Positions 153 to 62,442 of a stretch of 64,000 nucleotides of DNA are shown here, piece after piece; the stretch's first letter is position 1, and each line of letters starts with the position of its first letter. The notes below the pieces were generated by a model that did no database searches, had not been told where the DNA came from, and saw nothing but the letters and a program-made list of their open reading frames with translations. The stretch is from Candidatus Saccharimonadota bacterium (lineage in GTDB: Bacteria > Patescibacteriota > Saccharimonadia > Saccharimonadales > Saccharimonadaceae), in contig JAFOJO010000024.1 in assembly GCA_017421325.1 (NCBI GenBank), positions 27,005 to 91,004 on the forward strand, in the 5' to 3' direction. The translations under genes and the position numbers were made by a program.

Positions 153-1880
153 TTATTCGCCGGCGGAGCGAGCAACACAGCGTACAGACCACCCGTAGTT
201 GCCGTAGCCACGGGCTGGATAGATTTCATTATTGCCGCCAAAAGCCAGACTGTAAGCGCTGGTACTGCTGCTAACCGTACTAGACCAGTAGAAGCCGTAG
301 ACGCCGGGACTGTCTAGGAGGCCGCCACCGATATCACCAGACCGCACAAAGTAGTATGGATTAGAACGTAATTTATTGAAGCCACCCGTCGTGTAGCCTA
401 CAGAACCATCACCGGCAGATACTTTAGCAGTTATTTCAGCTTGATATAACATCCTACCAAATTCATTGTTAACGTTGTCTGTCTGTGAGGCATTAGGTAG
501 ACGCCAACCTTTAGGACAAATGGAGTTAGAGGCTATGGCTCCAGTAGTACTTATATTAGTAGAGTTGTTAGAAGCTATAGCGGCAGACCAGTTGTAATAG
601 TTGCCAACAAAGTAACGTTTACACTCATCTTCTGTATGGCTTGCGTTTTTGCAATCTTGCAGCGAATTATATCTTGTGTCGTTATTAGTGTTATTGGAGG
701 TATAGTAATACGTGTCACCGCCTTCGGCTGAGTATGGCGTGATGTAGTTATTGGTTGGCCAAGCAGATGGTTTAACTGAATTGCCATAAATATAGTAATT
801 AGACGTAATAGCTGTAGATACTGGAGTCCAAGTCCAGACGCCATCTTGTTCTGTATAGCCAGCTGAGTAGATACCACTACCGGATGCGGTGGTACTGATA
901 TCTGTGTTTTCCGATGTTAGTGTCGCTACGTTCGTACCGCTGATGTCTAGATCTAGATTACTAGTCATCCAACAATGTCCATCTTTAAGCTTAGTTACCC
1001 AGTAGAGTTTATCGTCTCTGGTGTCTACTAGCTGTGTAGCGGTATTTTCTCCATCTCCAGATACGGAGCTACATATATCTGCTGTCATATCCTGCATAGC
1101 GAAATAGTATTTGTTATCTTCATCTCGGTAGATTGGTTGTATGCCATGTGAAGCAAATGCTGATTCTAGATTATTAAGTGTTGGTTTATTGGTGTTTGGA
1201 TGCACTAGCATATACTTCACTTGCCCATTATAAGTACCTGCATACTGTGATGATGATGTATATACGGCATAGGTGGTAGTAAAAGATGACCCTTTGATCA
1301 TATCAGTGGCTTTTGCCGGGAGAGATGCTACTTTAGTCCACTTATCTGGGACTATGCCGTATATACCATCATAGTCTGATGTAATGACGGGAGGAGTAAG
1401 CGATGGATCATCTTTTAGGTTATTTAGACTCATAGCCCAGTTAGATGTATTACCTGACTCTGCTGTTCCTGATACTATATTAAAGTTAGAACTTTCTGTA
1501 TTAACTAGCTTATTATTACCTTCCTCATTATTACTATACCCTACTGCATATACACTATACCCATTGCCATCATTACATAGTGTAGTAATGGTAGTCTTAC
1601 CTATACCATTAGTATAAGTACCATTAATCAATTCTGCTGTATGACTACTATCTACTACACTACTTAATGTACAGGATGATGAGATAGAAAAGGATAAACT
1701 ATCTGTGGAGGAAGTAGAATCACTACTAGAATCAGTAGCAGAACTATGAAATGATAAATGAGATAAAACAACACCAGAAACCACAAGGAGAGGAATAGAA
1801 ACTAACAATACATTACGGAAAGCATAGTAGAAGAAATCTATTCTACTACTCATTAAAGATTGTTTTACTTTGTGGCCCAT
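153..1880 (-). CDS. Surface/secreted protein with C-terminal FISUMP (Fibrobacter succinogenes major paralogous, C-type-lectin-like) domain, paralog 1
   Basis: N-terminal hydrophobic segment, S/T-rich linker; motifs GHCWMTxNLDL, GNYYNWSAA, SICPKGWRLP, YWSST, SVRCVAR. Confidence 0.75.
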   Translation of the reverse strand: MGHKVKQSLMSSRIDFFYYAFRNVLLVSIPLLVVSGVVLSHLSFHSSATDSSSDSTSSTDSLSFSISSSCTLSSVVDSSHTAELINGTYTNGIGKTTITTLCNDGNGYSVYAVGYSNNEEGNNKLVNTESSNFNIVSGTAESGNTSNWAMSLNNLKDDPSLTPPVITSDYDGIYGIVPDKWTKVASLPAKATDMIKGSSFTTTYAVYTSSSQYAGTYNGQVKYMLVHPNTNKPTLNNLESAFASHGIQPIYRDEDNKYYFAMQDMTADICSSVSGDGENTATQLVDTRDDKLYWVTKLKDGHCWMTSNLDLDISGTNVATLTSENTDISTTASGSGIYSAGYTEQDGVWTWTPVSTAITSNYYIYGNSVKPSAWPTNNYITPYSAEGGDTYYYTSNNTNNDTRYNSLQDCKNASHTEDECKRYFVGNYYNWSAAIASNNSTNISTTGAIASNSICPKGWRLPNASQTDNVNNEFGRMLYQAEITAKVSAGDGSVGYTTGGFNKLRSNPYYFVRSGDIGGGLLDSPGVYGFYWSSTVSSSTSAYSLAFGGNNEIYPARGYGNYGWSVRCVARSAGE

Positions 1881-9053: not shown

Positions 9054-10108
9054 TTTTTAATTTTAGCTAGCATTTTATTTAGATAATAAAATGCATTTAA
9101 TGAGGATTCGTAAGTGCCAACTAATTCAATAACGTGCCCGCCAAAACCTTTTTTAAATTCGTAAATCCCGTAATCTTTGGCATTTGGGTCGGGCAAGCCT
9201 TGAATGCCATAAAAATTATAACGTTTAAAATGGTGCTTGGCGGCGTATTGAATCATATACCACTGAATAAGATATTGTGCGTTGTAATCTCGCATGTATT
9301 TTTGATCTGAGCCAGAAAATAGATAGATGATTTCGTCGCCATACATAATAAACATAGCTGCCGAGAGTGGTACTGTTTTGCCGTCAATCTTGGCTTCGGC
9401 GAGAATGAATTTGGCTTCGTTTTTTGGCACAAAAAGTCGGTACATTTTCTCATAATACGCTAATGGGCGGTCGGTAAAGTTGCGACGTTCGGACGTAGAT
9501 TCTGTAATTTGTTTAAGCTTGGGAAGTTCATCTTCGTCAATTTCGCGTATTTCTACGCCCATTTTTTCGGCTTTACGAATATGATTTCTAGTATTTCTCT
9601 TAAATTCGGACCAAAGTTCGTCGGCAGTGCGACCATTAATATCCAACGCAAAAAGATATTTTGGCTGAGAAGCGTGTTGTACTGGCTTAAAACCTAGGCT
9701 CTGGAGAGCAGAAACAACCTTTTGATGGTTGAAACCATGCTCGACCTCAATGCCATTGCGGTCACGTTGGATGAGTTCGTAATATGGACTAATTTGTAAC
9801 ACGTAGCCATTATGCGTTTTAGCATAAGAGCGAATTTTGGAGAGGAAAAACTTAGTGAGCGCGGTCTTTTCTAAATCTAGCAGTGGGCCTCCTGGTATAG
9901 TAAAAAGTGATTTACCAAAAAAAGTAGGTTTAGCAAAAGCTAGGGCGGCTGCAAGAATTTCTTCACCCTCTTTCACGGCAAAGTAATATGATGTCCAACC
10001 TTCAGATTCTCTATAACTGGCAATTTCTGATGTTTGAGTGAAAGAGCGATACTGATTTTGGTTGGCAAATTTCTTAAATTCTTCAACCGAGATTAAAACA
10101 AATTTCAT
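9038..10108 (-). CDS. FemABX/MurM-family peptidoglycan bridge aminoacyltransferase
   Basis: FTQTS, GGPLLD, RRNFTDRPLAYY, YNFYGI, GIYEFKKGF motifs. Confidence 0.85.
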   Translation of the reverse strand: MKFVLISVEEFKKFANQNQYRSFTQTSEIASYRESEGWTSYYFAVKEGEEILAAALAFAKPTFFGKSLFTIPGGPLLDLEKTALTKFFLSKIRSYAKTHNGYVLQISPYYELIQRDRNGIEVEHGFNHQKVVSALQSLGFKPVQHASQPKYLFALDINGRTADELWSEFKRNTRNHIRKAEKMGVEIREIDEDELPKLKQITESTSERRNFTDRPLAYYEKMYRLFVPKNEAKFILAEAKIDGKTVPLSAAMFIMYGDEIIYLFSGSDQKYMRDYNAQYLIQWYMIQYAAKHHFKRYNFYGIQGLPDPNAKDYGIYEFKKGFGGHVIELVGTYESSLNAFYYLNKMLAKIKNHLHR

Positions 10109-10152
10109 GTTTTTATTATACATCGATTATCGAATTTGTTATAATGAATTAT

Positions 10153-11793
10153 ATGCGAAGATTTAAGTTTAAGTCGGTGGTAAGATTGGCCAATATGAAG
10201 CTGTCGGTAAAATCGGCAGCGATCGTACTAGCTTCGTCTACTTTGGTCTCGGCTTTACTTGGGTTATTTCGCGACCGCTTGTTAAATTCCTATTACTTGG
10301 GCACTTATCCTACCGGGATCGATGCTTATACGGCAGCGTTTACCATACCAGATTTTATGTTTTTTATTTTGACTTCGGGCGCGTTAGCAGTATCGTTTAT
10401 TCCAGTATTTAATCAAAGGTTAGCTTCGGGTAACAAAAAATCAGCGTGGGAACTTTCTTCTAGTTTACTTAATTTGTTTGCAATTTTAACCTTAATTACT
10501 AGTGTGCTGATTATGATTTTTGCGGACCCTTTAATTCGCTATATTGTGAGTCCAGGATTAGACGAGTCTGGCATGATTCTCGCTATTAATATGACACGGG
10601 TGATTGCGATTAATCCGTTTTTGTTTTCTATTGCTACGGTGCTGACTTCTATTCAGCAGGCCGTGGGACGTTTTGTATTTTACGCCTTTGCGCCGGCGAT
10701 TTATAACATTGGTATTATCATTGGTATTACTTGCTTTACGGGCGGGATTAATGTCTTTGGCGTAGAAGTATTTGGCGGCGGGATTATGGGTGTGGCGCTA
10801 GGCGTAATACTGGGGGCGATTATGCAGCTAATCGTGTCTTTGATTGGACTATTTGGCCTAGGAATGGACTATAATTTCAAAATTAATTGGAAAAATCAAG
10901 GATTTAGGTCTATTTTGCGTCTATTGCCAGCGCGGTCACTAGATCAGGGGATTGACTACATAAATGGAATCGTAAACACAAACTTGTCCTCGCGGATGGG
11001 CGCTGGGGCGGTGAGGTCGTTTAACCAGGCATCTTCTTTACATTTAATGCCGGTAAATTTAATTGGTGTAGCAATTTCTACCGCTTTTTTTCCAAAACTA
11101 ACCGAAGAATTAGGTAACGGCGAAAAAGGGGAATTTAACAATACTTTTCGACAGGCGCTACGTACAATTATTTGGATAGCATTGCCGGTGTCGGTAATTG
11201 CGTTTTTTGGGCGGGGTTATGTAACCAGTTTTATTTCCAACATTGGCAATAACGATAGCAACGGCACAATCGCTTCAATACTTGGCACTTTGTGTATCGC
11301 GATTTTTGCGCGCAGCGTGTTTCATATTGCTTCGCGCGGATTTTACGCCTACCAAGATACCAAAACACCATTCGTGGTATCTATCGTTGCGATTGGGCTA
11401 ACGATTTTGCTATCAATATGGTTTTACGTGCTAGGCTGGGGGGTGGACGGGTTGGGCCTCGCGCAGTCTATCGGCGCAATTGTAGAAATTATTATCCTGC
11501 TGTATATTTTGCAAAAAAGGTCAAAGAAAGAATTATTAGATAAGGCTTTTTGGCGGGCAATGTTAAGAATGGCGTTTGCCACGATAATTGCTGGATGTGT
11601 GGCATTTTCGATGACTAAGTTTATTCCGCTGATGGCGACAGATAATTCGTTAGTAATCACCATTCCGAAATTCTTGGCGATTTCAACGATTTCGGCTGTT
11701 GCGTATATCGTGGCAAGTTATTTCTTGGACCTGAAGGAAGCTAAGCCAATCTTTAGCTACTTTAAGAAAATTTTGTTTAGAAACGCCAAGTAG
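10153..11793 (+). CDS. murJ: Lipid II flippase MurJ/MviN
   Basis: LGLFRD, DAYTAAFTIPD, SFIPVF; polytopic membrane protein. Confidence 0.9.
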   Translation: MRRFKFKSVVRLANMKLSVKSAAIVLASSTLVSALLGLFRDRLLNSYYLGTYPTGIDAYTAAFTIPDFMFFILTSGALAVSFIPVFNQRLASGNKKSAWELSSSLLNLFAILTLITSVLIMIFADPLIRYIVSPGLDESGMILAINMTRVIAINPFLFSIATVLTSIQQAVGRFVFYAFAPAIYNIGIIIGITCFTGGINVFGVEVFGGGIMGVALGVILGAIMQLIVSLIGLFGLGMDYNFKINWKNQGFRSILRLLPARSLDQGIDYINGIVNTNLSSRMGAGAVRSFNQASSLHLMPVNLIGVAISTAFFPKLTEELGNGEKGEFNNTFRQALRTIIWIALPVSVIAFFGRGYVTSFISNIGNNDSNGTIASILGTLCIAIFARSVFHIASRGFYAYQDTKTPFVVSIVAIGLTILLSIWFYVLGWGVDGLGLAQSIGAIVEIIILLYILQKRSKKELLDKAFWRAMLRMAFATIIAGCVAFSMTKFIPLMATDNSLVITIPKFLAISTISAVAYIVASYFLDLKEAKPIFSYFKKILFRNAK

Positions 11794-11809
11794 TGGTATA
11801 ATTTAGGAT

Positions 11810-12097
11810 ATGGAAATAAAACGCGAGGACATTATACATTTGGCGGATTTGTCAGATTTTTCTTTGAGTGAGTCGGAAATTACGTCTTTGGGGCAAGATT
11901 TGCAGGGAATTATCGGCTATATTTCGCAGTTAGAAGAATTAGACACCGACAATACTAAGCCAACCTATCAGGTATTTGAAATGGAAAATGTGTGGCGGGC
12001 AGACGAAATTTTGCCACAAGATGCCACACGTGAGGAGTTATTAGCCTTGACTAAAGAAGAAAAAGATAATCAAATAAAGGTACCGAAAGTATTATGA
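11810..12097 (+). CDS. gatC: Asp/Glu-tRNA amidotransferase subunit C
   Basis: I.HLA.LS...L pattern, KVPKVL end, position before gatA. Confidence 0.9.
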   Translation: MEIKREDIIHLADLSDFSLSESEITSLGQDLQGIIGYISQLEELDTDNTKPTYQVFEMENVWRADEILPQDATREELLALTKEEKDNQIKVPKVL

Positions 12098-13464
12098 AAA
12101 TAGCAAACAAAAAAGTAACAGCCGAGAGATTGGTGCGTGATGCTTTGGAAAAAGCCAAGCATTTTGCAGATTATAATATTTTTACGTTTTTGAACGAAGA
12201 AGGTGCTTTGGAAAAGGCACGCGAAATTGATGCGAAAATCGCCCGCGGGGAAGAAGTGGGGCGGCTGGCTGGCGTGCCGTATGCCTTGAAGGATAATTTT
12301 CTCAGCCCTGAAGGGCAAACTGCCGCGGCTTCGCATATTTTGGAGGGGTTTGTGTCGCCGGTGACAGCTACAGCAGTAGAAAAATTAGAGGCGGAAGGTG
12401 CGATTATGGTTGGGCGCACCAATATGGATGCATTTGCACACGGATCATCTACAGAAAATTCGTATTTTGGGCCAACGCACAATGCTTGCGATAAAGAACG
12501 AGTTGCCGGTGGATCTTCTGGCGGTTCGGCGGTAGCGGTAGCATTAGATATTGTAGAGTTTGCAACTGGCACCGATACTGGCGGTTCTATACGCCAACCG
12601 GCTTCATTCAATGGCGTATATGGATTAAAGCCTACGTATGGCACTATCTCGCGCTATGGCGTAGTAGCAATGGCGTCCTCTACGGATTGTATTGGATTCT
12701 TTACAAAAACCCCAGACGATATGAATTTATTAATGGAGATTGCGAGCGGGCAAGACGAAAAAGACCTTACGACTTTACCAGATTACTACGACAATGCAGG
12801 CGCCAAAAAGATTACTAAGGTCGGAATTATCAAGGATTTTGACAACAACTCAGTACATCCAGAAATCCGCAAAGCTTTACAGAATAAAATCGAGCTACTA
12901 AAATCTAAGGGCTATGAAATCGTAGATTTAGAAATGCCGGCTTTAAAATATGCGCTCGCGGCATATTACATAATTGTACCGGCAGAAGTAGCAAGTAATT
13001 TATCGCGCTATGACGGAGTGCGATACGGATTTCGTTCGGAAAAATCGGAAGATTTAGACGCGCTCTATAAGAATACACGCGGTGAAGGTTTTATGCCAGA
13101 AAATAAACGCAGGATTATGATCGGGAACTTTGTATTGTCTAGCGGATTTTATGATGCATATTTCCTAAAAGCAGCCAAAGCGCGAACTTTAATCGTGCAG
13201 GAGTACACAAAAGCCTTCGAGAAGTGCGATTTTATACTTTCACCGGTTACGCCAAATCCAGCCTTTAAGTTAGGCGAAAAAACTAGTGATCCGGTAACTA
13301 TGTATCTAGAAGATGCGATGACGGTACCATTAAACCTTGCTGGCGTACCTGGCCTTACTATACCGGCCGGTAAGACAGAGGATGGCGTCGCCCTAGGGCT
13401 ACAGCTGATTGGCCCGCGACGCAGCGATAAGAATTTAATCGAATTCTCTAAGGAGCTAATATAA
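12094..13464 (+). CDS. gatA: Asp/Glu-tRNA amidotransferase subunit A
   Basis: Amidase signature GGSSGGS, GTDTGGSIRQPA, SRYDGVRYG. Confidence 0.97.
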   Translation: MKIANKKVTAERLVRDALEKAKHFADYNIFTFLNEEGALEKAREIDAKIARGEEVGRLAGVPYALKDNFLSPEGQTAAASHILEGFVSPVTATAVEKLEAEGAIMVGRTNMDAFAHGSSTENSYFGPTHNACDKERVAGGSSGGSAVAVALDIVEFATGTDTGGSIRQPASFNGVYGLKPTYGTISRYGVVAMASSTDCIGFFTKTPDDMNLLMEIASGQDEKDLTTLPDYYDNAGAKKITKVGIIKDFDNNSVHPEIRKALQNKIELLKSKGYEIVDLEMPALKYALAAYYIIVPAEVASNLSRYDGVRYGFRSEKSEDLDALYKNTRGEGFMPENKRRIMIGNFVLSSGFYDAYFLKAAKARTLIVQEYTKAFEKCDFILSPVTPNPAFKLGEKTSDPVTMYLEDAMTVPLNLAGVPGLTIPAGKTEDGVALGLQLIGPRRSDKNLIEFSKELI

Positions 13465-13883
13465 TGGACGGCGGAGTAGTAACTTTTATCTTTGCGATAC
13501 TATTCGTAGCCGTGCTGGTATTTATTGCAATTTTATTAACTGGTAAGCGCGGGCACCATTTTAATGTAGAAGCTTATCAGTCACGGTTTTTGGCGATTGA
13601 AAATAAATTATCTCAAGATAATCCAGCCACTTTTATAACGACAGTGATAGAAGCGGACAAATTACTGGATAAAGCACTGATAGAGATGGGTGTGCCGGGC
13701 AAAACTATGGGGGATAGATTAAAGCGTTCTGGTGGAAGATTTACAGATATTAATGCGGTGTGGCGGGCACACAAATTACGTAATGCTATCGCGCACGAGC
13801 CCGATTTGGAGATGAGTCATAAAAAAGCATCTAATGCGTTGGCGGTTTATAAGCAAGCGTTAAAAGATTTAGGAGCCATATAA
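13464..13883 (+). CDS. Membrane-anchored hypothetical protein
   Basis: N-terminal TM; EADKLLD...GKTMGDRLK...AHKLRNAIAHE. Confidence 0.7.
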   Translation: MDGGVVTFIFAILFVAVLVFIAILLTGKRGHHFNVEAYQSRFLAIENKLSQDNPATFITTVIEADKLLDKALIEMGVPGKTMGDRLKRSGGRFTDINAVWRAHKLRNAIAHEPDLEMSHKKASNALAVYKQALKDLGAI

Positions 13884-35973: not shown

Positions 35974-37617
35974 TTATCTAGCGATACAGCGAAGTGATCT
36001 ACCGGTACCTTTGGTTGCTTGGCCACCGGCAAGAACAACAGCATTATTTGCAAAGCCGAAGGTATAAGCGTAAGAACTTGTATTGTTTGCGTTGGACCAA
36101 TAAAAGCTTTGTGCGTTTTGGTATTCGAATAAATTATTATTAACCCTTCCTGATTTGATAAACAAAAGGGGACTAATGGTTAAGCCGGCATCCGTATTAA
36201 TTTTGTTTTCATTGTACAAATAATTCAACCTCGCAAACTCATTAGTAGAACCAGGTATTGTTTCAGATTGGTTGGATACGGTAGGTAATCTCCATCCTTT
36301 AGGGCATATAGAGTTCTTAGGATTCTTAGATATATCATTTAATGTATCTTGTTTTAGAGAACTACTATCATTAGAAGCTATAGTCGCATTCCAGTTATAG
36401 TAATTGCCTAGTGAAGCATGTCCTGTTTCTATGCTATCTATCTTACTAGCAGTGTATGGCGCAGTATTGCTATTTTGCCATCCAGTAACGGTGGTACCGG
36501 TAAAGTCTATGGTAGTAGCACTACTAGCCGGCTCCCAATATATTACTCCATTGCTTTCTGTGTATCCATCACTATATTCTGTATATTGTCTAGTGCTAGA
36601 GTCATAAGCTACATTTAGATCCGTATTATTAGAATTAAAACTAATGGAAGAGTTAATATCTATATCTAAGTTCTCAGTCATCCAACAATGTCCATCTTTT
36701 AGTTTAGTTACCCAGTAAGTTTTGCCGTCTCTTTTGTCTATAAGCTGAGTCTGTGAAACTTCATCATATACGTCTACCTGATTGCAGATAGTTGCATCCA
36801 TATCTTGCATAGTGTAGTAAGTGCCATTTTCTGTGGTGATGGGGGTTTTATTATGTAGGGCATAGATTTCGTTAAAACCTAGATGATTGTTGTTGCTATT
36901 TGGATGCACCATAACGTATTTTACCTTCCCACTATAAGTACCAGCAGGCTGGATAGAACTAGCATAGATTTGGTAGGTAGTATTGATATAGGAACCAGAC
37001 AAAGTAGTATCTAGAGACATATCGGTTTTAGAGGTTCTTTTAGCCACTAGAGTGTAGATATCTGGTACTTCTTTATAACTATCGTAACCATTTTCTATAG
37101 TAGGAACAGTAGGATTAGATCCTGTGCCTATTCCCGCCGTTAGCTTCATGGCCCAGGATGATGGAGTAAGAGATGATGCTGTACTGCTATCATATACTCC
37201 GGTTTTAACATTATAACTATCACTAATACTACTAATAAGGTCTGTATTACCATCTATGTCCCCACTGCTACCTATAGCATAAATACTATAGCCATTATTA
37301 TCATTACAATAAGCATTCATTTTGGTATTACCTACATCTTCTACCAATTGTCCACCATTTAGTGATGCTGTATGAGCAGAAATAACTTCACCACTAATAG
37401 TGCATGAAGTAGATAGGGTAAATGAGATATTATCTGAACTAGAGCTACTAACTGTAGATTTATTATTTGCTTCCGCAGAACTATGAGAAGTACTAAAACC
37501 AAGAATAAAAGCACAAACCACAAGAAGAGGAATAGAAACTAACAATACATTACGGAAAGCATAGTAGAAGAAATCTATTCTACTACTCATTAATGATTGT
37601 TTTACTTTGTGGCCCAT
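35974..37617 (-). CDS. FISUMP-domain surface protein, paralog 2
   Basis: N-terminus nearly identical to paralogs 1 and 4; GHCWMTENL, GNYYNW, SICPKGWRLP, SLRCIAR. Confidence 0.75.
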   Translation of the reverse strand: MGHKVKQSLMSSRIDFFYYAFRNVLLVSIPLLVVCAFILGFSTSHSSAEANNKSTVSSSSSDNISFTLSTSCTISGEVISAHTASLNGGQLVEDVGNTKMNAYCNDNNGYSIYAIGSSGDIDGNTDLISSISDSYNVKTGVYDSSTASSLTPSSWAMKLTAGIGTGSNPTVPTIENGYDSYKEVPDIYTLVAKRTSKTDMSLDTTLSGSYINTTYQIYASSIQPAGTYSGKVKYVMVHPNSNNNHLGFNEIYALHNKTPITTENGTYYTMQDMDATICNQVDVYDEVSQTQLIDKRDGKTYWVTKLKDGHCWMTENLDIDINSSISFNSNNTDLNVAYDSSTRQYTEYSDGYTESNGVIYWEPASSATTIDFTGTTVTGWQNSNTAPYTASKIDSIETGHASLGNYYNWNATIASNDSSSLKQDTLNDISKNPKNSICPKGWRLPTVSNQSETIPGSTNEFARLNYLYNENKINTDAGLTISPLLFIKSGRVNNNLFEYQNAQSFYWSNANNTSSYAYTFGFANNAVVLAGGQATKGTGRSLRCIAR

Positions 37618-37650
37618 CTTCTACCTCACTTATATATGATTACTACTACT

Positions 37651-37788
37651 CCCCCATGTGGTGCCACTATATTAATGGGGATTAACAAAAATGGCACCGC
37701 AAGGGGTGCTATACATTATTACTAGATACAAAGTATTTTGTCTCTGCAACAAGGTTCCTTACGGCGCCATTTGAATTGCAGAGTAAAA
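37651..37788 (-). promoter_or_regulatory. Conserved structured 5' leader, copy 2
   Basis: Motif as in copy 1; extended -10 TGGTATAAT at 37846-37854 (minus). Confidence 0.7.
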
Positions 37789-39107: not shown

Positions 39108-42100
39108 ATGGAACAAGTCATACATTTTATTTTAATGCCTATCTTCTGGATTCCGGTGGTGGGGATACTGGCGTTTTTGACGTACCGGAATTATAAGAAG
39201 TTAAACACCCTGAAGGTGTTGAATGTAGATTCGGTGCTATTGATGCTAGAAATTCCGCGCACCAATGATAAAAAAGAGCTGGCGGCAGAGCAGTTGTTCG
39301 CTAGTTTGCATGGTATTTTAAGAGATAAGAATGAATTAAAGAACAGTGGTGGGGTGCAAGAGCATTTGTCGTTTGAAATTGTATCTACGGCGGGACAGAT
39401 ACGGTTCTATGTATGGGTGCCGAAGGTACTACAAAGTTTTGTAGAAGGGCAGATTTATTCGCAATACCCAACCGTGCAAATCTATAAGATGAATGAAGAT
39501 TATGCAGATGACCGCACTAAATATCCGGTGAATTATTCAGCGGAACTGGGACTGATAGAGAATGAAGCTTTGCCGATTAAGACCTTTGACAACTTTGAAG
39601 TAGATCCCTTGGCCGGGATTACCGGGACTTTGGCAAAGTTAAACCCAGACAACTCTGAGGAGATGTGGATCCAGATATTGGCGCGTCCAATCCCGGATGA
39701 CTGGCATAAAAATACCACCGATAAGTGGGTGCGACAGATAAAGTCTGGCAAAAAATCACTGTTTGCCAGCACTGGCATAGACTGGACTTGGCTAGCCGAG
39801 GCGATTGGGGCACTGTTTCGCCCACCGGCAGGGGGCACGGGATCTGACGTAAAGATAGAATTGTCCGAGCGTGATAAAAATCGCATCGCCAAAGCCGAAG
39901 AAAAAGCTACCAAGCTAGGATATGAAGTGAAAATTCGCCTGGCGTACTTGGGGCAAAACCAAACCGATGCCAAGCTAAATATGCAGGCTTTGGTGGGGAC
40001 CTTTAAGCAATATAATTCTACAAACTTGAATGGGTTTAAGCAGGTGGGCGGCTCGTTCAACCCGAGCGACCTAGATGCGTATAAAATGCGGCAGTTTTCT
40101 AGTCGCGGGTTTATCTTGAATATTTCCGAGCTGGCTAGCGTGTATCATTTGCCGCATACTTCGGTAGAAACCCCGAACATTGTTTGGGCTACATCCAAAA
40201 CAGCTGAACCGCCGGCAAAATTACCAGTACTAACTGGCGAGGTTTCTAATGACGAAAATATTTCAGCCTTTGGGCTAACTAATTTCCGAGGAATCAATCA
40301 TCAGTTTGGTCTGTTGCGTCGCGATAGATCGCGCCATGTATATATTATTGGGCAAACAGGAGCAGGGAAAAGCGGGATGCTGGAACTCTTGGCACTTTCC
40401 GATATTTTCTACAATCAAGGGTATTGTATTATTGACCCGCACGGAGATTTTGCGATAGATAACCTAAGATTTGTGCCAGAAAGCCGTGTGAAGGATGTGG
40501 TATATTTCAACCCGGCGGATACGGCATTTCCGGTGGCGTTTAACCCGCTAGAGATTACCGACCCCGCTCGCAAACCCAATATATGTTCTGAAGTGATAGG
40601 TGTGCTAAAGCGAATGTTTGGTGACTCTTGGGGGCCAAGGCTAGAGCATATTTTACGTTATACTTTATTGGCTTTGTTAGATAGGCCAGAAGCTACATTA
40701 CTAGACATTTCTAGATTATTAACTGATAAGGAATTTCGTAAAGAAACTTTGGAATATTGCAAAGATGTTACAGTGTTACAATTCTGGAAACACGAGTTTG
40801 GGCAATGGAATGAAAAACAAGTAAATGAGTCCATCGCGCCAGTACTTAATAAGGTGGGGGCCTTTACCGCTAACCCGATTATTCGTAATATTATTGGGCA
40901 GCCGAAATCTTCGTTTGATATTCGTAAGATTATGGATGAAGGGAAGATATTAGTAGTGAATCTTTCTAAGGGGTTAATCGGGGAAGATAATGCGGGGATT
41001 TTGGGTTCTTTCTTAGTTACTAAAGTGCAATTAGCGGCGATGTCGCGCTCTGATATACCAGATGTAGCAGATCGGCGGCCGTTTTATTTGTACGTAGATG
41101 AGTTCCAGAACTTTGCTACAGATTCCTTTTCAGTGATTCTTTCTGAGGCACGTAAGTACGGCTTGAATTTGACCGTGGCAAACCAATACGTGGCCCAAAT
41201 GACCGACAGCGTGCGTGATGCGGTATTTGGCAACGTGGGCACCACTATTAGCTTCCGCGTATCCGCCGACGATGCACCAATACTGGTAAAGCAATTTGAG
41301 CCAACTTTTGAAGAAGGCGACATCATCCAGCTGAACAACCGGCACTTTGTGATTTCAATGATTATTAACGGTGAGAAGGTGCCAGCGTTCTCGGCTACTA
41401 CCCTTTCTATCCCAGATACGCCAAAGGATAACTTTGATGCGATTGTTGCGCATTCACGCGAAAATTACGCCCGTCCACGGATGGAAGTAGAGGCCGAAAT
41501 TCGTGAGACGATCGAACAATCTGAAAAATACAAGAAGGATTTATCCGACTCTGGTCGGCAAGAAGAGCCACGTCTGGTAATAAATAGCGCCGAGCAGCCA
41601 GTATTTAAGCCGGTGACGCGTGAGAAAAAAGAGTTTTCTACTTCTATTCGTACTAACGGCCCAAGTTTCTCATCCGAACAAAAACCGAACTTAAAATATC
41701 GGTCTACGTACCAGCCCACACCGCAGGCGGATTTCCGGCGTCAAAATTTAAGCCCAAATACCGCTGAAGGTAAAGAAAGGCTGGGCTTGAAGGATTTGGC
41801 AAAGTTAGCGGCAGACAGACAGGGAAATAACGAGGCCGCTAAACCCGTAGAGACTACGAAGCCCGCAAAAAAGGGAAAAGTAAATAGTAAAAACCAGCGG
41901 CGGAACAATAAAAAGGGAAAGAAACGCCAGGCAGTTCCCACTGTTAAGCCTACTAAGAATGCTAGTGCTACCCCTGTAAGACCAGAGGTGGAATATCAGG
42001 AAAAATCTACCGTAGATATTCATCCATCTCATAATTCTCTACCCCTGTCTACCCCTGTTAAACGGACAGAAGATTTCGCTGGAAAAGATAATTCGGTAGA

Positions 42101-42125
42101 TGGGTTCTTGTCTATAAAACATTAG
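39108..42125 (+). CDS. TraD/VirD4-like (T4SS coupling protein family) ATPase with N-terminal membrane anchor
   Basis: Walker A GQTGAGKS, IIDPHGD, YVDEFQNF, SEARKYGL; disordered C-tail. Confidence 0.8.
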   Translation: MEQVIHFILMPIFWIPVVGILAFLTYRNYKKLNTLKVLNVDSVLLMLEIPRTNDKKELAAEQLFASLHGILRDKNELKNSGGVQEHLSFEIVSTAGQIRFYVWVPKVLQSFVEGQIYSQYPTVQIYKMNEDYADDRTKYPVNYSAELGLIENEALPIKTFDNFEVDPLAGITGTLAKLNPDNSEEMWIQILARPIPDDWHKNTTDKWVRQIKSGKKSLFASTGIDWTWLAEAIGALFRPPAGGTGSDVKIELSERDKNRIAKAEEKATKLGYEVKIRLAYLGQNQTDAKLNMQALVGTFKQYNSTNLNGFKQVGGSFNPSDLDAYKMRQFSSRGFILNISELASVYHLPHTSVETPNIVWATSKTAEPPAKLPVLTGEVSNDENISAFGLTNFRGINHQFGLLRRDRSRHVYIIGQTGAGKSGMLELLALSDIFYNQGYCIIDPHGDFAIDNLRFVPESRVKDVVYFNPADTAFPVAFNPLEITDPARKPNICSEVIGVLKRMFGDSWGPRLEHILRYTLLALLDRPEATLLDISRLLTDKEFRKETLEYCKDVTVLQFWKHEFGQWNEKQVNESIAPVLNKVGAFTANPIIRNIIGQPKSSFDIRKIMDEGKILVVNLSKGLIGEDNAGILGSFLVTKVQLAAMSRSDIPDVADRRPFYLYVDEFQNFATDSFSVILSEARKYGLNLTVANQYVAQMTDSVRDAVFGNVGTTISFRVSADDAPILVKQFEPTFEEGDIIQLNNRHFVISMIINGEKVPAFSATTLSIPDTPKDNFDAIVAHSRENYARPRMEVEAEIRETIEQSEKYKKDLSDSGRQEEPRLVINSAEQPVFKPVTREKKEFSTSIRTNGPSFSSEQKPNLKYRSTYQPTPQADFRRQNLSPNTAEGKERLGLKDLAKLAADRQGNNEAAKPVETTKPAKKGKVNSKNQRRNNKKGKKRQAVPTVKPTKNASATPVRPEVEYQEKSTVDIHPSHNSLPLSTPVKRTEDFAGKDNSVDGFLSIKH

Positions 42126-42780: not shown

Positions 42781-43150
42781 ATAAAAAGCCTTCTAGCTTG
42801 GTGCATTTAGGCTAATTTTATAGGTTTTGGTGGATTTTTCGGGTTTTTGGGCGAATTTGGGCTAAATTTGCGAATTTGACAATTCCCTTGGTTTATTTCC
42901 CTTTTTTATGATTTTCCCTGTTTTTGGTCGGGGCGTTGGTATTATTCGTTATTTTGATTACCATTTTTGCCGAACAAAAACCGAACAGGAATAGGAAATT
43001 ATAGAATTGCAGGTACTAGAACAAAACCCGAACACTTCCCTATTATTTGCACTATTGCTTTTATTAAGGATGTGTGCTATAATGAGGTTATATTCCGATG
43101 CGGGCAATTCGAACGGAGAGATACCCAAGAAGAACCCGTTTTTTTGTTGG

Positions 43151-43652
43151 CTATTTTAGATAGGCGATTTTTTTCTTTACACCTACATTATCTAGAAAAT
43201 CTACATATTTTGGTGTATAGGTTCTGTATAATGAAGAGGTAGAATGACGATTAGGCGACAATAATTTGCAAAAACGGTTTTTATTCACTAAATATTGTAC
43301 CATTTTGAAATAGTCCCCGTCACCAGATACCAATACTACATCATCGAAAGGTTCGTTATCAGCGATTTTGGACATAATGGAAAACACTATATCGGTATCC
43401 ACATTTCCCTTTTTCTTTCCGGTCATTACTTGGCTGTGCTCACGGAATACAAGGATGAAACCTGCCGTTTGGATGAGTTCGTATAAGGCTCTGGTTTGCC
43501 TCATCTACAGCCCCTAGAAAATAATAGGCCTTAGTAACCTTATATTTGTCCCTTAAATAAATCCTGAACTTCTTAAGATCAACAATCCAATTGTTCGCCT
43601 TAGTGTTCATATATAGATTTTGTCCGTCTATAAAAGCATAATTATTTGTCAT
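43151..43652 (-). pseudogene. NYN (LabA/DUF88) nuclease-domain gene with single frameshift
   Basis: YAFIDGQNL in one frame; KGNVDTD and LVSGDGDY in another; join at AAC CAG A GCC TTA near 43489. Confidence 0.75.
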
Positions 43653-43744
43653 ATTTTATACATTATACCATACAGGTATTATTCTATGGTCCAGGAGGGA
43701 TGAGACAAAGGTCGATTGATGACTGCCCTAGGGGCAATTTAATC

Positions 43745-45394
43745 TTAGCGAGCTACGCAGCGTACAGACCTCCCGTAGTACCTGTAGTAGTTACTGGCTG
43801 GGTAGATATCAGTACCATTAAAGCCCAGGGAGTAAGCGTAAGTACTATTGCCAACCGTACTAGACCAGCAGCTGCTGCTGACACCGGGATTGACCAGGGT
43901 ACCGTCACTGACAGCGCCAGACCGCACAAAGTAGTAAGGATTAGAGCGTAGCTTGCTAAAACTAGTAACGCCACTGTAATAACCTACGGAGCCATCTCCA
44001 TTTGATAAAGCCGCGGTAATGCCTTCCCCATACAGCATCCTACCAAATTCGTTGTTAACGTTATCTGTTTGTGAGGCATTGGGTAGACGCCATCCTTTAG
44101 GACAGATAGAGTTAGAGGCGATTTCTCCTGCTGTGCTACCTATATTAGTAGAATTATTAGAAGCTATAGCGGCAGACCAGTTATAGTAGTTACCAGCATG
44201 ATAATGTTTACAATCTCCTTCTGTATGATTTGCTGCTATACACTCAGATAGTGAATTGTATTTTATATCATTTGCTTCGGAATTAGATGTATAGTAATAT
44301 ACATCACCTGGATCTGCAGAATATGGATAGTTATTTTGATTAGACCAACCAGGAACAGAAGTACCGTTTACTGGTAGGTTATATTTACCATTAGTGGTAT
44401 CTGGTTTCCATGTAGCATTACTATCAAAACTATCTGGATCCCAACCTAGATCCGTATCATTATGAGTGTAGGTTCTGGTGGCGTCTATCTCTAAGTCTAA
44501 GTTCTGCGTCATCCAGCAATGTCCATCTTTAAGCTTAGTTACCCAGTAGAGATTATTATCTCTAGTGTCTAATAATTGTGTGGCGGTACTTGTGCCGTCG
44601 TTAGCGACCATATTACAAATCCCCGCATCCATATCTTGCATAGCATAATATTCACCAACGCCAGCTATATTGATTTTATTTTTCCCGGATAAGGCAAAGG
44701 TATCCTCGATAGTTAAAGTGCCTTCATTTTTGTATGGATGAATTAGGGCATACTTCACCTGCCCCTGATAAGTACCTGCATACTGACTAGATGATGCATA
44801 TACAGCATAAGTAGTAGTAAAGGATGAACCCTCAGCCATGTCCGTAGTACCAGATGCTCTTCCTGCTACCTTAGTCCAATAAGGTGGTACTATACCATAG
44901 ACATTATTGTAATCACTTTCTATAGTAGGAGGAGTAGGAGAAGGATCATCTGGCATATTGTTTAACTTCATAGCCCATTGTGAGGTAAGACCACTTGTTG
45001 CTAATCCTGTGTCTATACTATATTGTGGATATTCAGTATTAATGAGTCTATTATTACCTTCTTCATTATTACTATATCCTACTGCATATACACTATACCC
45101 ATTACCATCATTACATAGTGTAGTAATGGTAGTTTTTCCTATATCTCCTAAATAGTTACCATTATATACTTCTGCATTATGAGAAATATTAACTACACTA
45201 GATAAAGTACATGATGATGAGATAGTAATAGCTAGATTGTCTGAACTAGAACCAGAGTTTGTAGCAGAACTATGAGGCAACGATAAGATAATGGTAGAAA
45301 TGATAACTAATGGAATACTAATGGCTAATATATTGCGGAAAGCATAGTAGAAGAAATCTGTATAACTATTTGTTTTATATTGTTTATCACCCAT
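43745..45394 (-). CDS. FISUMP-domain surface protein, paralog 3
   Basis: Closest to paralog 1 in N-domain and C-terminal domain. Confidence 0.75.
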   Translation of the reverse strand: MGDKQYKTNSYTDFFYYAFRNILAISIPLVIISTIILSLPHSSATNSGSSSDNLAITISSSCTLSSVVNISHNAEVYNGNYLGDIGKTTITTLCNDGNGYSVYAVGYSNNEEGNNRLINTEYPQYSIDTGLATSGLTSQWAMKLNNMPDDPSPTPPTIESDYNNVYGIVPPYWTKVAGRASGTTDMAEGSSFTTTYAVYASSSQYAGTYQGQVKYALIHPYKNEGTLTIEDTFALSGKNKINIAGVGEYYAMQDMDAGICNMVANDGTSTATQLLDTRDNNLYWVTKLKDGHCWMTQNLDLEIDATRTYTHNDTDLGWDPDSFDSNATWKPDTTNGKYNLPVNGTSVPGWSNQNNYPYSADPGDVYYYTSNSEANDIKYNSLSECIAANHTEGDCKHYHAGNYYNWSAAIASNNSTNIGSTAGEIASNSICPKGWRLPNASQTDNVNNEFGRMLYGEGITAALSNGDGSVGYYSGVTSFSKLRSNPYYFVRSGAVSDGTLVNPGVSSSCWSSTVGNSTYAYSLGFNGTDIYPASNYYRYYGRSVRCVAR

Positions 45395-45437: not shown

Positions 45438-45570
45438 TGCATAATTCATTAATGTTGAGGGACATAAAGGCAAAATCTATTGAAAGTAGATTTTGCCGCC
45501 GAAGGGGCGAAGTGATGTGATAAAATTTATTATCACATCACGAAGCTCCCGAAACATAATGAATTATGCA
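45438..45570. mobile_element. ~133-bp MITE-like element, copy B
   Basis: 13-bp perfect TIR TGCATAATTCATT; inverted homolog of 7954-8087. Confidence 0.7.
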
Positions 45571-45590
45571 AAAGTACATTTTAGCTTGTA

Positions 45591-45721
45591 GTGCCACTTG
45601 TAAACGGGGTAGTTATACAAAAATGGCACCGCAAGGGGTGCAATAACAAGTCATATACCAGGCTTATACCCATATAGAACTTAGTCCTTACGGCGCCGTT
45701 CATATCCTATATGGATATAAG
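45591..45721 (-). promoter_or_regulatory. Conserved structured 5' leader, copy 3
   Basis: Motif as in copy 1; TGCTATACT at 45770-45778 (minus). Confidence 0.7.
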
Positions 45722-60605: not shown

Positions 60606-62276
60606 TCAGCGGGCGAGACAACGGATAGAACGTCCGTGAGTTCTGCCGCTGCCATATCTACCAGCTAAATCCACCGTGTGCTTACCAAAGTATAAATAGT
60701 ATGTGCTCCTATAGTCAGAAACGGTGCTAGACCAATTACTACCACCAGAACCAGCAAAATAGAGCGGCCCACCGTCTATATTTCCAGATCGCGTAAAATA
60801 TAAAGGCGCATCGATCCAACCTACGTCGGAGTCAATGTTGTCTCTATTGTATAAATTATTAAGTTTAGTGAATTCATTAGCATCTTGACTTGAAATTACT
60901 GGCAATCTCCATCCTTTAGGACAAATAGAGTTTTGCGGATTTTTAGTTATGTTAACATAGGTATTAGACATGAATGAACTACTATCGTCGCTAGCAATGG
61001 CGGCAGACCAGTTGTAGTAATTGCCCGTTGAGCCATGGGTACTATTATTGTGGTATGGAGTTCGTGAGAAATGTTCACAAGCAGCAATAAGATAGTTGCA
61101 GTCCGACGTATCGTCGTTTGCATCCCAATACCATTCGCCTACATCCATAGAATAAGCTTTATTATTGTTATTTACCCACGCCGCACCGGTTCCAGTGTTG
61201 TAATTTCTGGTGACATTCTCTGGAGTCCAAGTAATAATTCTGGTATTCGGGTCATACGAGTAGTGTAAGTTATAGGCCCCAGTAAGTGAGTTGTCGTTTA
61301 GGTCTGTTTCCTCTGACGTAAGAGCTATAGAAGAAGATAGATCTAGATCTAGATTTTGTGTCATCCAACAGTGCCCATCTTTTAGTTTGGAGACGTAGTA
61401 TAGTTTATTGTCTCGTATGTCCACTAGTTTTTCTTCTGTTTCATAAGTAGTGGTTAAGGAGCATATTCTACTACTCATGTCTTGCATTTTGTAGTAGTTG
61501 CCAGTTTCACCTGTGATAGGATCTGTGACTTGTACTTTGTCTTTACCGGCTATATCAAAGGCTTCTTCCATAGTAGTAAGTTGGCTAGCATCATATGGGT
61601 GAGTCATGGTATATTTAACTTTACCTAGATAAGTTCCTGCTGGTTGGATGGGATTAGTGTATATTTCGTAGGTGGTATTAAAGTATGAACCAGTTAAGTC
61701 CGTGTTTAGATCCATGCTGGTGCCGGATGTTCTATAAGCCACTATAGTATCTGTACTAGGTATGAGATTATAGTTATTATATACATCTACTACAGTAGGA
61801 GCATAAGTTCCATTACTACTAGTTAACTTCATAGCCCAGGATGAAGGGGTATTGGCAGTTATTGTGCTACTATCATACACATTAGTATGAATATTATAGT
61901 TATCATTAATACTACTAACTAAATCCGTATTACCATCTGTATCATTACTACTACCTATAGCATAGATGAAATAGCCATTATTATCATTACAGTAAGCATT
62001 AATTCTAGTATTACCAATATTTCCTTCATATTGGCCATTAACTAATGTGGCATTATGTGGAGTAAGTATATTAGCGCTAATAGTACATGAAGTAGGTAGA
62101 GATAAAGAAACGCTGTCTGTACTAGAACTATATGCAGAACTATGAGATGATAAATGAGATAAAACAACACTAGAAACAACAAGAAGAGGAACAGAAACTA
62201 ACAATACATTACGGAAAGCATAGTAGAAGAAATCTGCTCTACTACTCATTAATGATTGTTTTACTTTGTGGCCCAT
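60606..62276 (-). CDS. FISUMP-domain surface protein, paralog 4
   Basis: Same architecture; N-domain closest to paralog 2. Confidence 0.75.
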   Translation of the reverse strand: MGHKVKQSLMSSRADFFYYAFRNVLLVSVPLLVVSSVVLSHLSSHSSAYSSSTDSVSLSLPTSCTISANILTPHNATLVNGQYEGNIGNTRINAYCNDNNGYFIYAIGSSNDTDGNTDLVSSINDNYNIHTNVYDSSTITANTPSSWAMKLTSSNGTYAPTVVDVYNNYNLIPSTDTIVAYRTSGTSMDLNTDLTGSYFNTTYEIYTNPIQPAGTYLGKVKYTMTHPYDASQLTTMEEAFDIAGKDKVQVTDPITGETGNYYKMQDMSSRICSLTTTYETEEKLVDIRDNKLYYVSKLKDGHCWMTQNLDLDLSSSIALTSEETDLNDNSLTGAYNLHYSYDPNTRIITWTPENVTRNYNTGTGAAWVNNNNKAYSMDVGEWYWDANDDTSDCNYLIAACEHFSRTPYHNNSTHGSTGNYYNWSAAIASDDSSSFMSNTYVNITKNPQNSICPKGWRLPVISSQDANEFTKLNNLYNRDNIDSDVGWIDAPLYFTRSGNIDGGPLYFAGSGGSNWSSTVSDYRSTYYLYFGKHTVDLAGRYGSGRTHGRSIRCLAR

Positions 62277-62307
62277 CTTCTACCTCACTTATAATTAGCT
62301 TTACTAA

Positions 62308-62442
62308 CCCCCATGTGGTGCCACTTGTAAACGGGGTAGTCATACAAAAATGGCACCGCAAGGGGTGCTATAACCTAATCAAAGTAATCGTGCGAACACT
62401 ACACATCTGACGGCTTCCCTGCGATGCCATTATTAGATATGT
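62308..62442 (-). promoter_or_regulatory. Conserved structured 5' leader, copy 4
   Basis: Motif as in copy 1; TTGAAA-18-TATAAT with extended TG (-10 at 62497-62502, minus). Confidence 0.7.

Follow-up and report, generated by a model that had tools for sequence, protein, structure and literature searches.

The diversity-generating retroelements (DGRs) of candidate phyla radiation (CPR) bacteria and DPANN archaea were reportedly described by Paul et al. in 2017. The present analysis concerns a 64,000-nucleotide stretch of a CPR genome (Candidatus Saccharimonadota contig JAFOJO010000024.1; "the window" denotes this whole stretch) and two paralogous genes in it, P1 and P3, whose 3' ends an earlier note on this DNA had taken for remote DGR targets. 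Among the nearest described systems is DGR target class 'd' or CLec2 (DUF1566 / DUF823 / Fib_succ_major; Wu et al. 2018) with LdtA of Legionella pneumophila as its prototype, Fib_succ_major/DUF1566 domains being a recognised class of DGR targets (PMC5758913, PMC4159848). Like the members of this class, the P1/P3 family has its variable region in the C-terminal ~60 residues of a FISUMP/DUF1566-type domain that belongs to a surface-exposed, membrane-tethered protein (PMC5758913, PMC4159848). Template AAC/AAT codons are diversified at codon positions 1 and 2, and the motif ends in ..SVRCVAR, as in class 'd'. Unlike that class, the family carries an N-terminal transmembrane anchor and no lipoprotein signal, resides in a cell-wall-bearing CPR bacterium and reaches 12-18 copies per ~1 Mb genome, and P1 and P3 showed neither a cognate template nor population variability in the data searched.

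The model that the earlier note invoked for P1 and P3, in which one reverse transcriptase (RT) and template serve several dispersed paralogs, is documented for the DGR of Treponema denticola (TvpA) with its seven non-adjacent targets (PMC5758913). The remote variable regions of Treponema differ from the template repeat only at adenines, whereas P1 and P3 do not fit the templates found, have non-adenine changes in the scaffold and, in the case of P1, contain indels. A 'CPR DGRs' lineage has also been described (PMC5758913). With the DGRs of CPR bacteria and DPANN archaea the present system shares the host phylum, a chromosomal, non-phage cassette and a surface-protein target presumed to act in host-cell attachment. 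It differs from them in having a large paralog family as target, a second, template-less subtype with a DGR imprint at at least five loci, a template opposite in strand to the RT, and an accessory open reading frame (ORF) of 280 residues with no Pfam match.

With moderate confidence we regard P1 and P3 as relics, now fixed, of a DGR diversification that took place in an expanded adhesin-like family. The two genes belong to a distinct subtype of this family, recognisable by the motif NPYYFVRSG, and the positions that matter for the argument are the following.

Positions 153-1880, minus strand: P1, 575 residues, N-terminal membrane anchor and C-terminal FISUMP domain (ORF and translation).
Positions 43745-45394, minus strand: P3, 549 residues, architecture like that of P1 (ORF and translation).
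Positions 167-356, minus strand: homolog of DGR variable regions within P1 (79% identity to the subtype consensus).
Positions 43745-43936, minus strand: homolog of DGR variable regions within P3; its 64 codons align with the subtype scaffold without gaps (87% identity to the consensus).
Positions 337 (P1) and 43917 (P3), minus strand: shared block TACTACTTTGTGCGGTCTGG.
Positions 273 (P1) and 43853 (P3), minus strand: shared block TGGTCTAGTACGGTT.
Positions 180 (P1) and 43760 (P3), minus strand: shared block TCTGTACGC.

Fourteen ungapped copies of the subtype were collected from three GTDB lineages of metagenome-assembled genomes (MAGs), from JGI contigs and from ENA contigs, representing six or more genomes or metagenomes. 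The near-complete MAG CAMVCW01 (SRR8387714_bin.9) contains three subtype copies (L004, L009 and L060) together with the L042 cassette. The downstream flanks place subtype copies at five or more distinct chromosomal loci, spread over several genomes. Across the 14 copies, 146-149 of 189 columns were near-invariant, third codon positions included, and 27-29 columns were hypervariable with three or four different nucleotides each. In an alignment of 10 copies the columns with three or four nucleotides fell mostly on positions 1 and 2 of codons 8, 10, 15, 16, 20, 22, 33, 36, 38, 50, 51 and 54. The orthologs L009 and L080, which are 85% identical over 10 kb, differ in the variable region at 6 of 64 third positions versus 20 changes at first and second positions; the coding sequence adjoining the region is much more divergent (~15%). 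We read this pattern as the imprint of overwriting from a conserved template, which also accounts for the low synonymous divergence between P1 and P3 (see below). Furthermore, the P1/P3 segment is collinear, residue for residue, with genuine DGR variable regions of the same FISUMP family. The subtype and the P1/P3 pair combine a variable region at the 3' end of the ORF, hypervariability at positions 1 and 2 of template-AAY codons and an invariant scaffold. The segment's DGR ancestry is well supported.

The comparison of P1 with P3 started from the observations of the earlier note, which held up. Within the 64 kb there are just two copies each of TACTACTTTGTGCGGTCTGG, TGGTCTAGTACGGTT and TCTGTACGC, both on the minus strand, one in P1 and one in P3, and the paralogs P2 and P4 lack these blocks; the hexamer GCTCGC, which the note had listed with them, has 26 copies in the window and is too short to inform. 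The 3' ends of P1 and P3 are 74.6% identical over 197 nucleotides (E=2e-34), with no third partner in the window by blastn at word size 7. All ten codon pairs that had been quoted as differing mainly at positions 1 and 2 were recovered (alignment columns 554-597). Differences at codon positions 1/2/3 amounted to 14/17/13 in the last 49 aligned codons versus 137/114/222 elsewhere in the gene, a shift with a one-sided Fisher p of 0.019. The proportion of synonymous differences (pS) was 0.33 in the region versus 0.60 elsewhere, and the ratio of nonsynonymous to synonymous proportions (pN/pS) was ~0.9 versus 0.4. The stretch just upstream (NYYNWSAA..NEFGRMLY) is near-identical in the two proteins (pN 0-0.06), as had been noted. 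The most divergent part of the protein lies elsewhere, with a pN of 0.45-0.51 in columns 330-390 versus 0.29 in the region; therefore the P1/P3 pair by itself is a modest signal. The amino-acid differences between P1 and P3 affect 12 of the 17 columns that are Asn in the eight templates described below versus 11 of the 45 other columns (p=0.0012).

Of the copies compared, P3 and P1 have departed furthest from the scaffold. P3 has nine private changes in 149 near-invariant scaffold columns, mostly transitions, the maximum among the 14 copies. P1 has more scaffold changes than P3, in addition shows one inserted and one deleted codon, and has lost its stop. The loss of the ancestral stop codon created, in bases 153-166, an extension of four codons and a new stop.

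The genuine DGR variable regions were identified in relatives. A scan of GTDB genomes yielded 62 family loci; a motif screen of these loci showed that in L034 and L042 a family member is directly followed by an RT. The cassette of L042 reads as follows.

L042 positions 9899-11536: target gene.
L042 positions 11621-12463: accessory ORF, 280 residues, no Pfam match, overlapping the start of the RT.
L042 positions 12438-13604: RT with motifs IGNLTSQLVSN..YGRYVDD (Pfam RVT_1, 35 bits).
L042 positions 13652-13870, strand opposite to target and RT: template, 219 nucleotides, Asn-rich (..SPLWFVRSGNVNNGNLNNPGSEANYWSSTVNSSNNAYNLNF..NNNNRNNGRSVRCVAR).

The last 198 nucleotides of the L042 target differ from the template by 23 mismatches, and 23 of 23 are at template adenines. 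A search for homologs of the RT gave 6974 matches at E<=1e-20, from which clusters P0024, P0025, P0033, P0037, P0042, P0044, P0047 and P0056 were followed to their contigs. Together with L042 this led to eight template lineages, all of subtypes other than that of P1 and P3. The template cassettes are always located at a conserved site between KsgA and SerRS, or beside NifS; cassettes at the KsgA ... SerRS site were present in all three close MAG lineages and on many metagenome contigs. Active pairs of variable region (VR) and template repeat (TR) share the last ~30 nucleotides of the ORF and ~39 nucleotides past the stop codon (..CCGCAACTCTTT..).

The cassettes have some further properties. 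In L042 (11621-13870), L034, L066, L068, L084, L087, L089, L093 and L099 the template is on the strand opposite to target and RT. The cassette templates sit just 3' of a gene for a WxL-interacting-protein-like membrane protein of 283 residues, between conserved flanks (GGGGATTCCAGAGCTGCTTTGGCC upstream, CCGCAACTCTTT downstream). In place of the usual arrangement with an Avd of ~120 residues, the Saccharibacteria cassettes have the 280-residue accessory ORF that overlaps the RT start. In the cassette-adjacent target P0151 (L085, 3914-4097) the variable region equals the template without any difference, which points to a homing product free of mutations or else to a collapse during assembly. Another such target, P0254, has a 3' half equal to the template and a diversified 5' half; therefore mosaic variable regions occur in this lineage. 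L079, a metagenome contig, shows the usual SerRS / membrane-protein / target context at 1400-1700 with only short fragments of the RT (32 residues) and the accessory gene (56 residues) and could come from a relative whose DGR cassette has degenerated.

The window itself contains no such machinery, in agreement with the earlier note. ORFs of at least 50 residues gave no match at E<=10 to a hidden Markov model built from 120 Saccharibacteria DGR RTs, tblastn of the RT and accessory protein of a relative against the window gave none either, and blastn at word size 7 found no template there. No DGR-clade RT was found in the window or in the 10 kb past P1, nor was an RT found nearby on the long contigs of the subtype proteins P0176 and P0163. 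A template of the P1/P3 subtype was not found in 103 loci (~1.4 Mb), in the scan of JGI metagenome contigs or in IMG/VR, where all hits of this subtype were in-gene copies. The pattern used to scan JGI contigs and IMG/VR, TTTGTGCGGTCYGGN{40,55}TGGTCTAGTACGGTY, retrieves the known templates of other subtypes.

Identity to the subtype consensus ranges over 69-78% for the eight templates. Seven, compared directly with P1 and P3, match them at 60-67%; the eighth (L099) was compared with the subtype consensus only, at 72%. For the L042 template the identity to P1 and P3 was 61-71%, P3 reaching 71% overall, and against P1 it showed 38 non-adenine mismatches and a non-A identity of 70.5%. Among the templates found, none differs from P1 or P3 only at adenines, as opposed to the 23/23 of the L042 control. 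The ORF end of P1 and P3 resembles the active VR/TR end (GGG[A/T]GGTCTGTACGCTG..GCTCGCT) without the element of ~39 nucleotides past the stop codon (..CCGCAACTCTTT..), which is missing in P1, P3 and all subtype copies.

A 784-nucleotide Logan contig of run X2, which has the depth of the window strain and aligns with both the P3 region and the L042 template, was rejected as this genome's template because of a 3-nucleotide indel relative to P3 and a flank unlike the conserved template flanks. It is probably another paralog. Flanks of the usual cassette site (KsgA, membrane protein and SerRS) lie on other X2 contigs at ~41-46x, which equals the depth of the window strain; therefore the organism may well carry a DGR.

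The variability of P1 and P3 was judged from contigs (ENA assemblies, Logan contigs and clusters at 90% identity), in which rare within-population variants are invisible. The cassette-adjacent targets provided the positive control: variable columns in the last 66 residues versus the rest of the protein numbered 28/7, 18/0, 28/11 and 22/0 in their 90% clusters, and nearly every cluster member differed. The 90% clusters of P1 and P3 contained one variant each, located outside the region (G492D, S346Y). The P1 protein was identical on three ENA metagenome contigs, one of them from a strain with four synonymous single-nucleotide polymorphisms, and again in Logan contigs of X1 and X4 (a goat run and another gut run). 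The P3 region was identical in Logan contigs of X2 and X25, had two differences in X28 and one different residue in the fragment P0189. Among near-identical copies of P1 or P3 we saw no variability confined to the variable region.

Another species has a syntenic P1 ortholog, L008, with 83% nucleotide identity and a collinear UvrB flank; it keeps almost all 'hypervariable' residues of P1 (IGGGLLDSP..YGFY..SSSTSAYSLAF..GNNEIYPARGYG). The P3 ortholog on JGI contig L076 has a 96.7% identical flank and differs in the region at 25 of 192 nucleotides, mainly in hypervariable codons; the 3' third of the region is identical, including four TAC codons at hypervariable sites. Because P3 differs from such a close ortholog, it was diversified more recently than P1.

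The proposal of remote DGR targets therefore has to be divided. Its historical part stands, given the homology to genuine DGR variable regions and the signature in 14 copies, and the accompanying caveat that some differences could reflect age or diverged templates was on the mark. The lack of TR and RT in close relatives, named beforehand as evidence against a DGR, was not observed, because in close relatives both adjoin a family member. Remote targeting at present finds no support in the case of P1 and is open to doubt for P3: eight template lineages gave no match, the regions are invariant across independent samples and P1 is conserved with its ortholog. We infer that P1 and P3 carry a DGR imprint that is no longer being overwritten.

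The course of events that we favor would be as follows. An RT would copy a template RNA rich in Asn codons (AAC/AAT) and misread the adenines, as is seen in the relatives. The cDNA would then replace the 3' end of target genes, so that positions 1 and 2 become randomised at ~14-17 residues presumed to contact the ligand, with the scaffold left intact, again by analogy with the relatives. The last ~64 codons of P1 and P3 would derive from such a variable region. Fixation of P1 would predate its separation from a species whose nucleotide sequence is ~17% divergent, and the gene would afterwards have collected ordinary substitutions, two indels and the loss of its stop codon. P3 would have been diversified later, be static in the sampled populations and be starting to drift from the scaffold. 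The paralogs would then represent a standing, hard-wired repertoire of binding specificities seeded by earlier DGR activity and not live hypervariable loci.

Several points weigh against fixed relics. The genome was covered over the 64 kb and the 10 kb beyond P1, and an RT with a cognate template may lie elsewhere. The scaffold is near-invariant across species, and therefore a subtype template exists or existed until recently; this implied template was never found in any of the data searched. P3 and L076 differ at ~12 hypervariable codons despite their 96.7% identical flank, and rare ongoing homing at P3 is possible. The independent samples are modest in number (~5-6 per gene), several of them perhaps from one clonal strain, and they are contigs, not raw reads.

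A broader proposal, which we put forward tentatively and as a whole, is a two-tier diversification in gut Saccharibacteria, where one cassette-adjacent target is continuously rewritten and a second system works slowly. An unseen template of the NPYYFVRSG subtype may act in trans on at least five dispersed paralogs at a much lower rate, and copies like P1 may drop out into the hard-wired repertoire. If this is true, duplication has preserved the output of a DGR as a germline-like family of 12-18 adhesins within the ~1 Mb genome of an episymbiont, and the route from somatic-style hypervariation to fixed paralog diversity would be documented.

It is unlikely, in our estimate, that P1, P3 or both are live remote targets, served in trans and at low frequency by an RT and an NPYYFVRSG-subtype template elsewhere in the genome. 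Remote targets are documented for other DGRs (PMC5758913), cassettes occupy the KsgA ... SerRS site in all three close MAG lineages and on many contigs, and the X2 contigs with the flanks of that site (~41-46x) match the depth of the window strain. Moreover, the scaffold is 97-100% conserved across genomes that are at most ~85% identical, which argues for a living template, and the differences between P3 and L076 are mostly at hypervariable codons. Against this, the matching template was missing from the 103 loci, the JGI scan and IMG/VR, the eight templates found belong to other subtypes, and the post-stop element of active VR/TR pairs is missing. P1 and P3 stay the same from sample to sample, whereas cassette-adjacent targets vary in nearly every one. 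P1 is conserved with its ortholog and has indels that homing would erase, and the 3' third of P3 equals that of L076 with four TAC codons that fresh homing would re-randomise.

Still less probable is that no retroelement was ever involved and that paralogs diverged in the ordinary way at a ligand-binding loop under diversifying selection, with a Gly/Ser/Tyr/Asn/Asp-rich composition imposing C or T at third positions and gene conversion maintaining the likeness of the scaffold. The unexceptional pN of the region (0.29, with 0.45-0.51 in other windows), the C/T ending that many residues of the pattern require (Tyr, Asn, Asp, Ser-AGY, Phe, Cys), the modest position bias of the pair (p=0.019) and the failure to find a cognate template agree with it, but the differences coincide with template Asn columns (p=0.0012), the scaffold, fourfold-degenerate third positions included, is far more conserved than adjacent coding sequence (6/64 vs ~15%) at five or more chromosomal loci in several genomes, and the segment is collinear with regions that in relatives undergo adenine-only, template-directed mutagenesis.

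The attachment and host-range proteins of Saccharibacteria, which live attached to host bacteria, are to our knowledge largely unknown. A large family of membrane-anchored FISUMP proteins, with a binding face that was once or is now rewritten by a DGR, offers candidate host-recognition adhesins for Saccharibacteria of ruminant and pig guts. Public data contain both kinds, live targets beside a cassette and frozen paralogs dispersed elsewhere, and these form a natural system in which the fixation of DGR diversity can be followed and one can ask why a variable region ceases to be a target. What deserves attention beyond the fixed relics is this contrast of live and frozen copies, and the template that the subtype implies. 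A practical warning also follows: a DGR-like codon pattern by itself is no proof of current mutagenesis.

The protein domain was examined by structure prediction. An AlphaFold2 model of P3 residues 255-549 had a mean pLDDT of 94.9 and a pTM of 0.93. In BFVD it matched phage proteins of the 'Fibrobacter succinogenes major paralogous domain' (Fib_succ_major) with E=3e-4 and 2e-3, and a DUF1566 protein with E=0.08. A Foldseek search of the PDB gave no significant match, the top one being 4EPS, a fimbrial protein of Bacteroides ovatus (54 columns, E=0.47). A sequence profile run against the PDB likewise had no match. The suggested C-type-lectin relationship of P1 and P3 follows the grouping of such domains in the literature.

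P1 and P3 belong to a set of four paralogous minus-strand genes of ~550 residues each in the window, which has a G+C content of 43%. The remaining two are these.

Positions 35974-37617, minus strand: P2, 547 residues, FISUMP family, C-terminal subtype other than that of P1 and P3, without the shared blocks.
Positions 60606-62276, minus strand: P4, 556 residues, FISUMP family, C-terminal subtype other than that of P1 and P3.

In all four, a hydrophobic anchor at the N-terminus (DFFYYAFRNVLLVSIPLLVV..) is joined by a Ser/Thr-rich linker to a FISUMP domain at the C-terminus. Scores with NCBIfam TIGR02145 were 56.7 bits for P1, 50.2 for P2 and 57.7 for P3, above the cut-off of 41.65, and 40.6 bits for P4, slightly under it; Pfam PF09603 (Fib_succ_major) stayed under the gathering threshold for all four. 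P1 and P3 are cell-surface, membrane-anchored FISUMP-domain proteins of the putative DUF1566 / C-type-lectin-like class. Protein relatives are nearly confined to MAGs of Candidatus Saccharibacteria and Nanosyncoccus with ~12-18 copies per genome, a number also seen as loci per MAG in three related Saccharibacteria genomes (CAMKRV01, CAMVDR01 and CAMVCW01; loci L004-L065). Many contigs terminate within family members, which suggests that these repeats break assemblies. The DNA of the window was also found in bovine, goat and other gut metagenomes, and the organism is a Saccharibacterium of ruminant and pig guts.

Strain variants of P4 are spread across the whole protein: of 26 variable positions against P0008, 2 are in the last 66 residues. 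The C-terminus of P2 (35974-36170) has unusually many AAT/AAC Asn codons (..VNNNLFEYQNAQSFYWSNANNTSS..FANNAVV..) and no nucleotide similarity to any template or to the other paralogs. Between P2 and P3 the plus strand encodes a 1005-residue protein with TrwB/TraG-type coupling-protein and HerA-like ATPase domains (39108-42125). The 3' part of this gene is only 73% identical in L076, versus 96.7% for the adjacent intergenic region. Directly downstream of P3, on the minus strand, lies an NYN-domain gene split by a frameshift (43043-43679; Pfam NYN E=2e-9), of which the N-terminal part stops and the C-terminal part runs on in a different frame; this segment of ~640 bp is missing from L076.

No tRNA genes and no Rfam matches were found in the window, the leader described here included. 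This conserved leader of ~125 nucleotides precedes all four paralogs on the minus strand (1881-2010, 37618-37760, 45545-45680 and 62277-62410), and P3 has an insertion of ~150 nucleotides between leader and ribosome-binding site. A 12-bp helix (GGCACCGTAAGG ... CCCTTGCGGTGCC) closes a variable loop of ~56 nucleotides and is followed by ATTTTTG and a second hairpin (ACCCC..GGGG). The helix pairs are preserved through one-sided changes only, and family members in other MAGs are preceded by the same leader. The leader may be an attenuator or a regulatory RNA.

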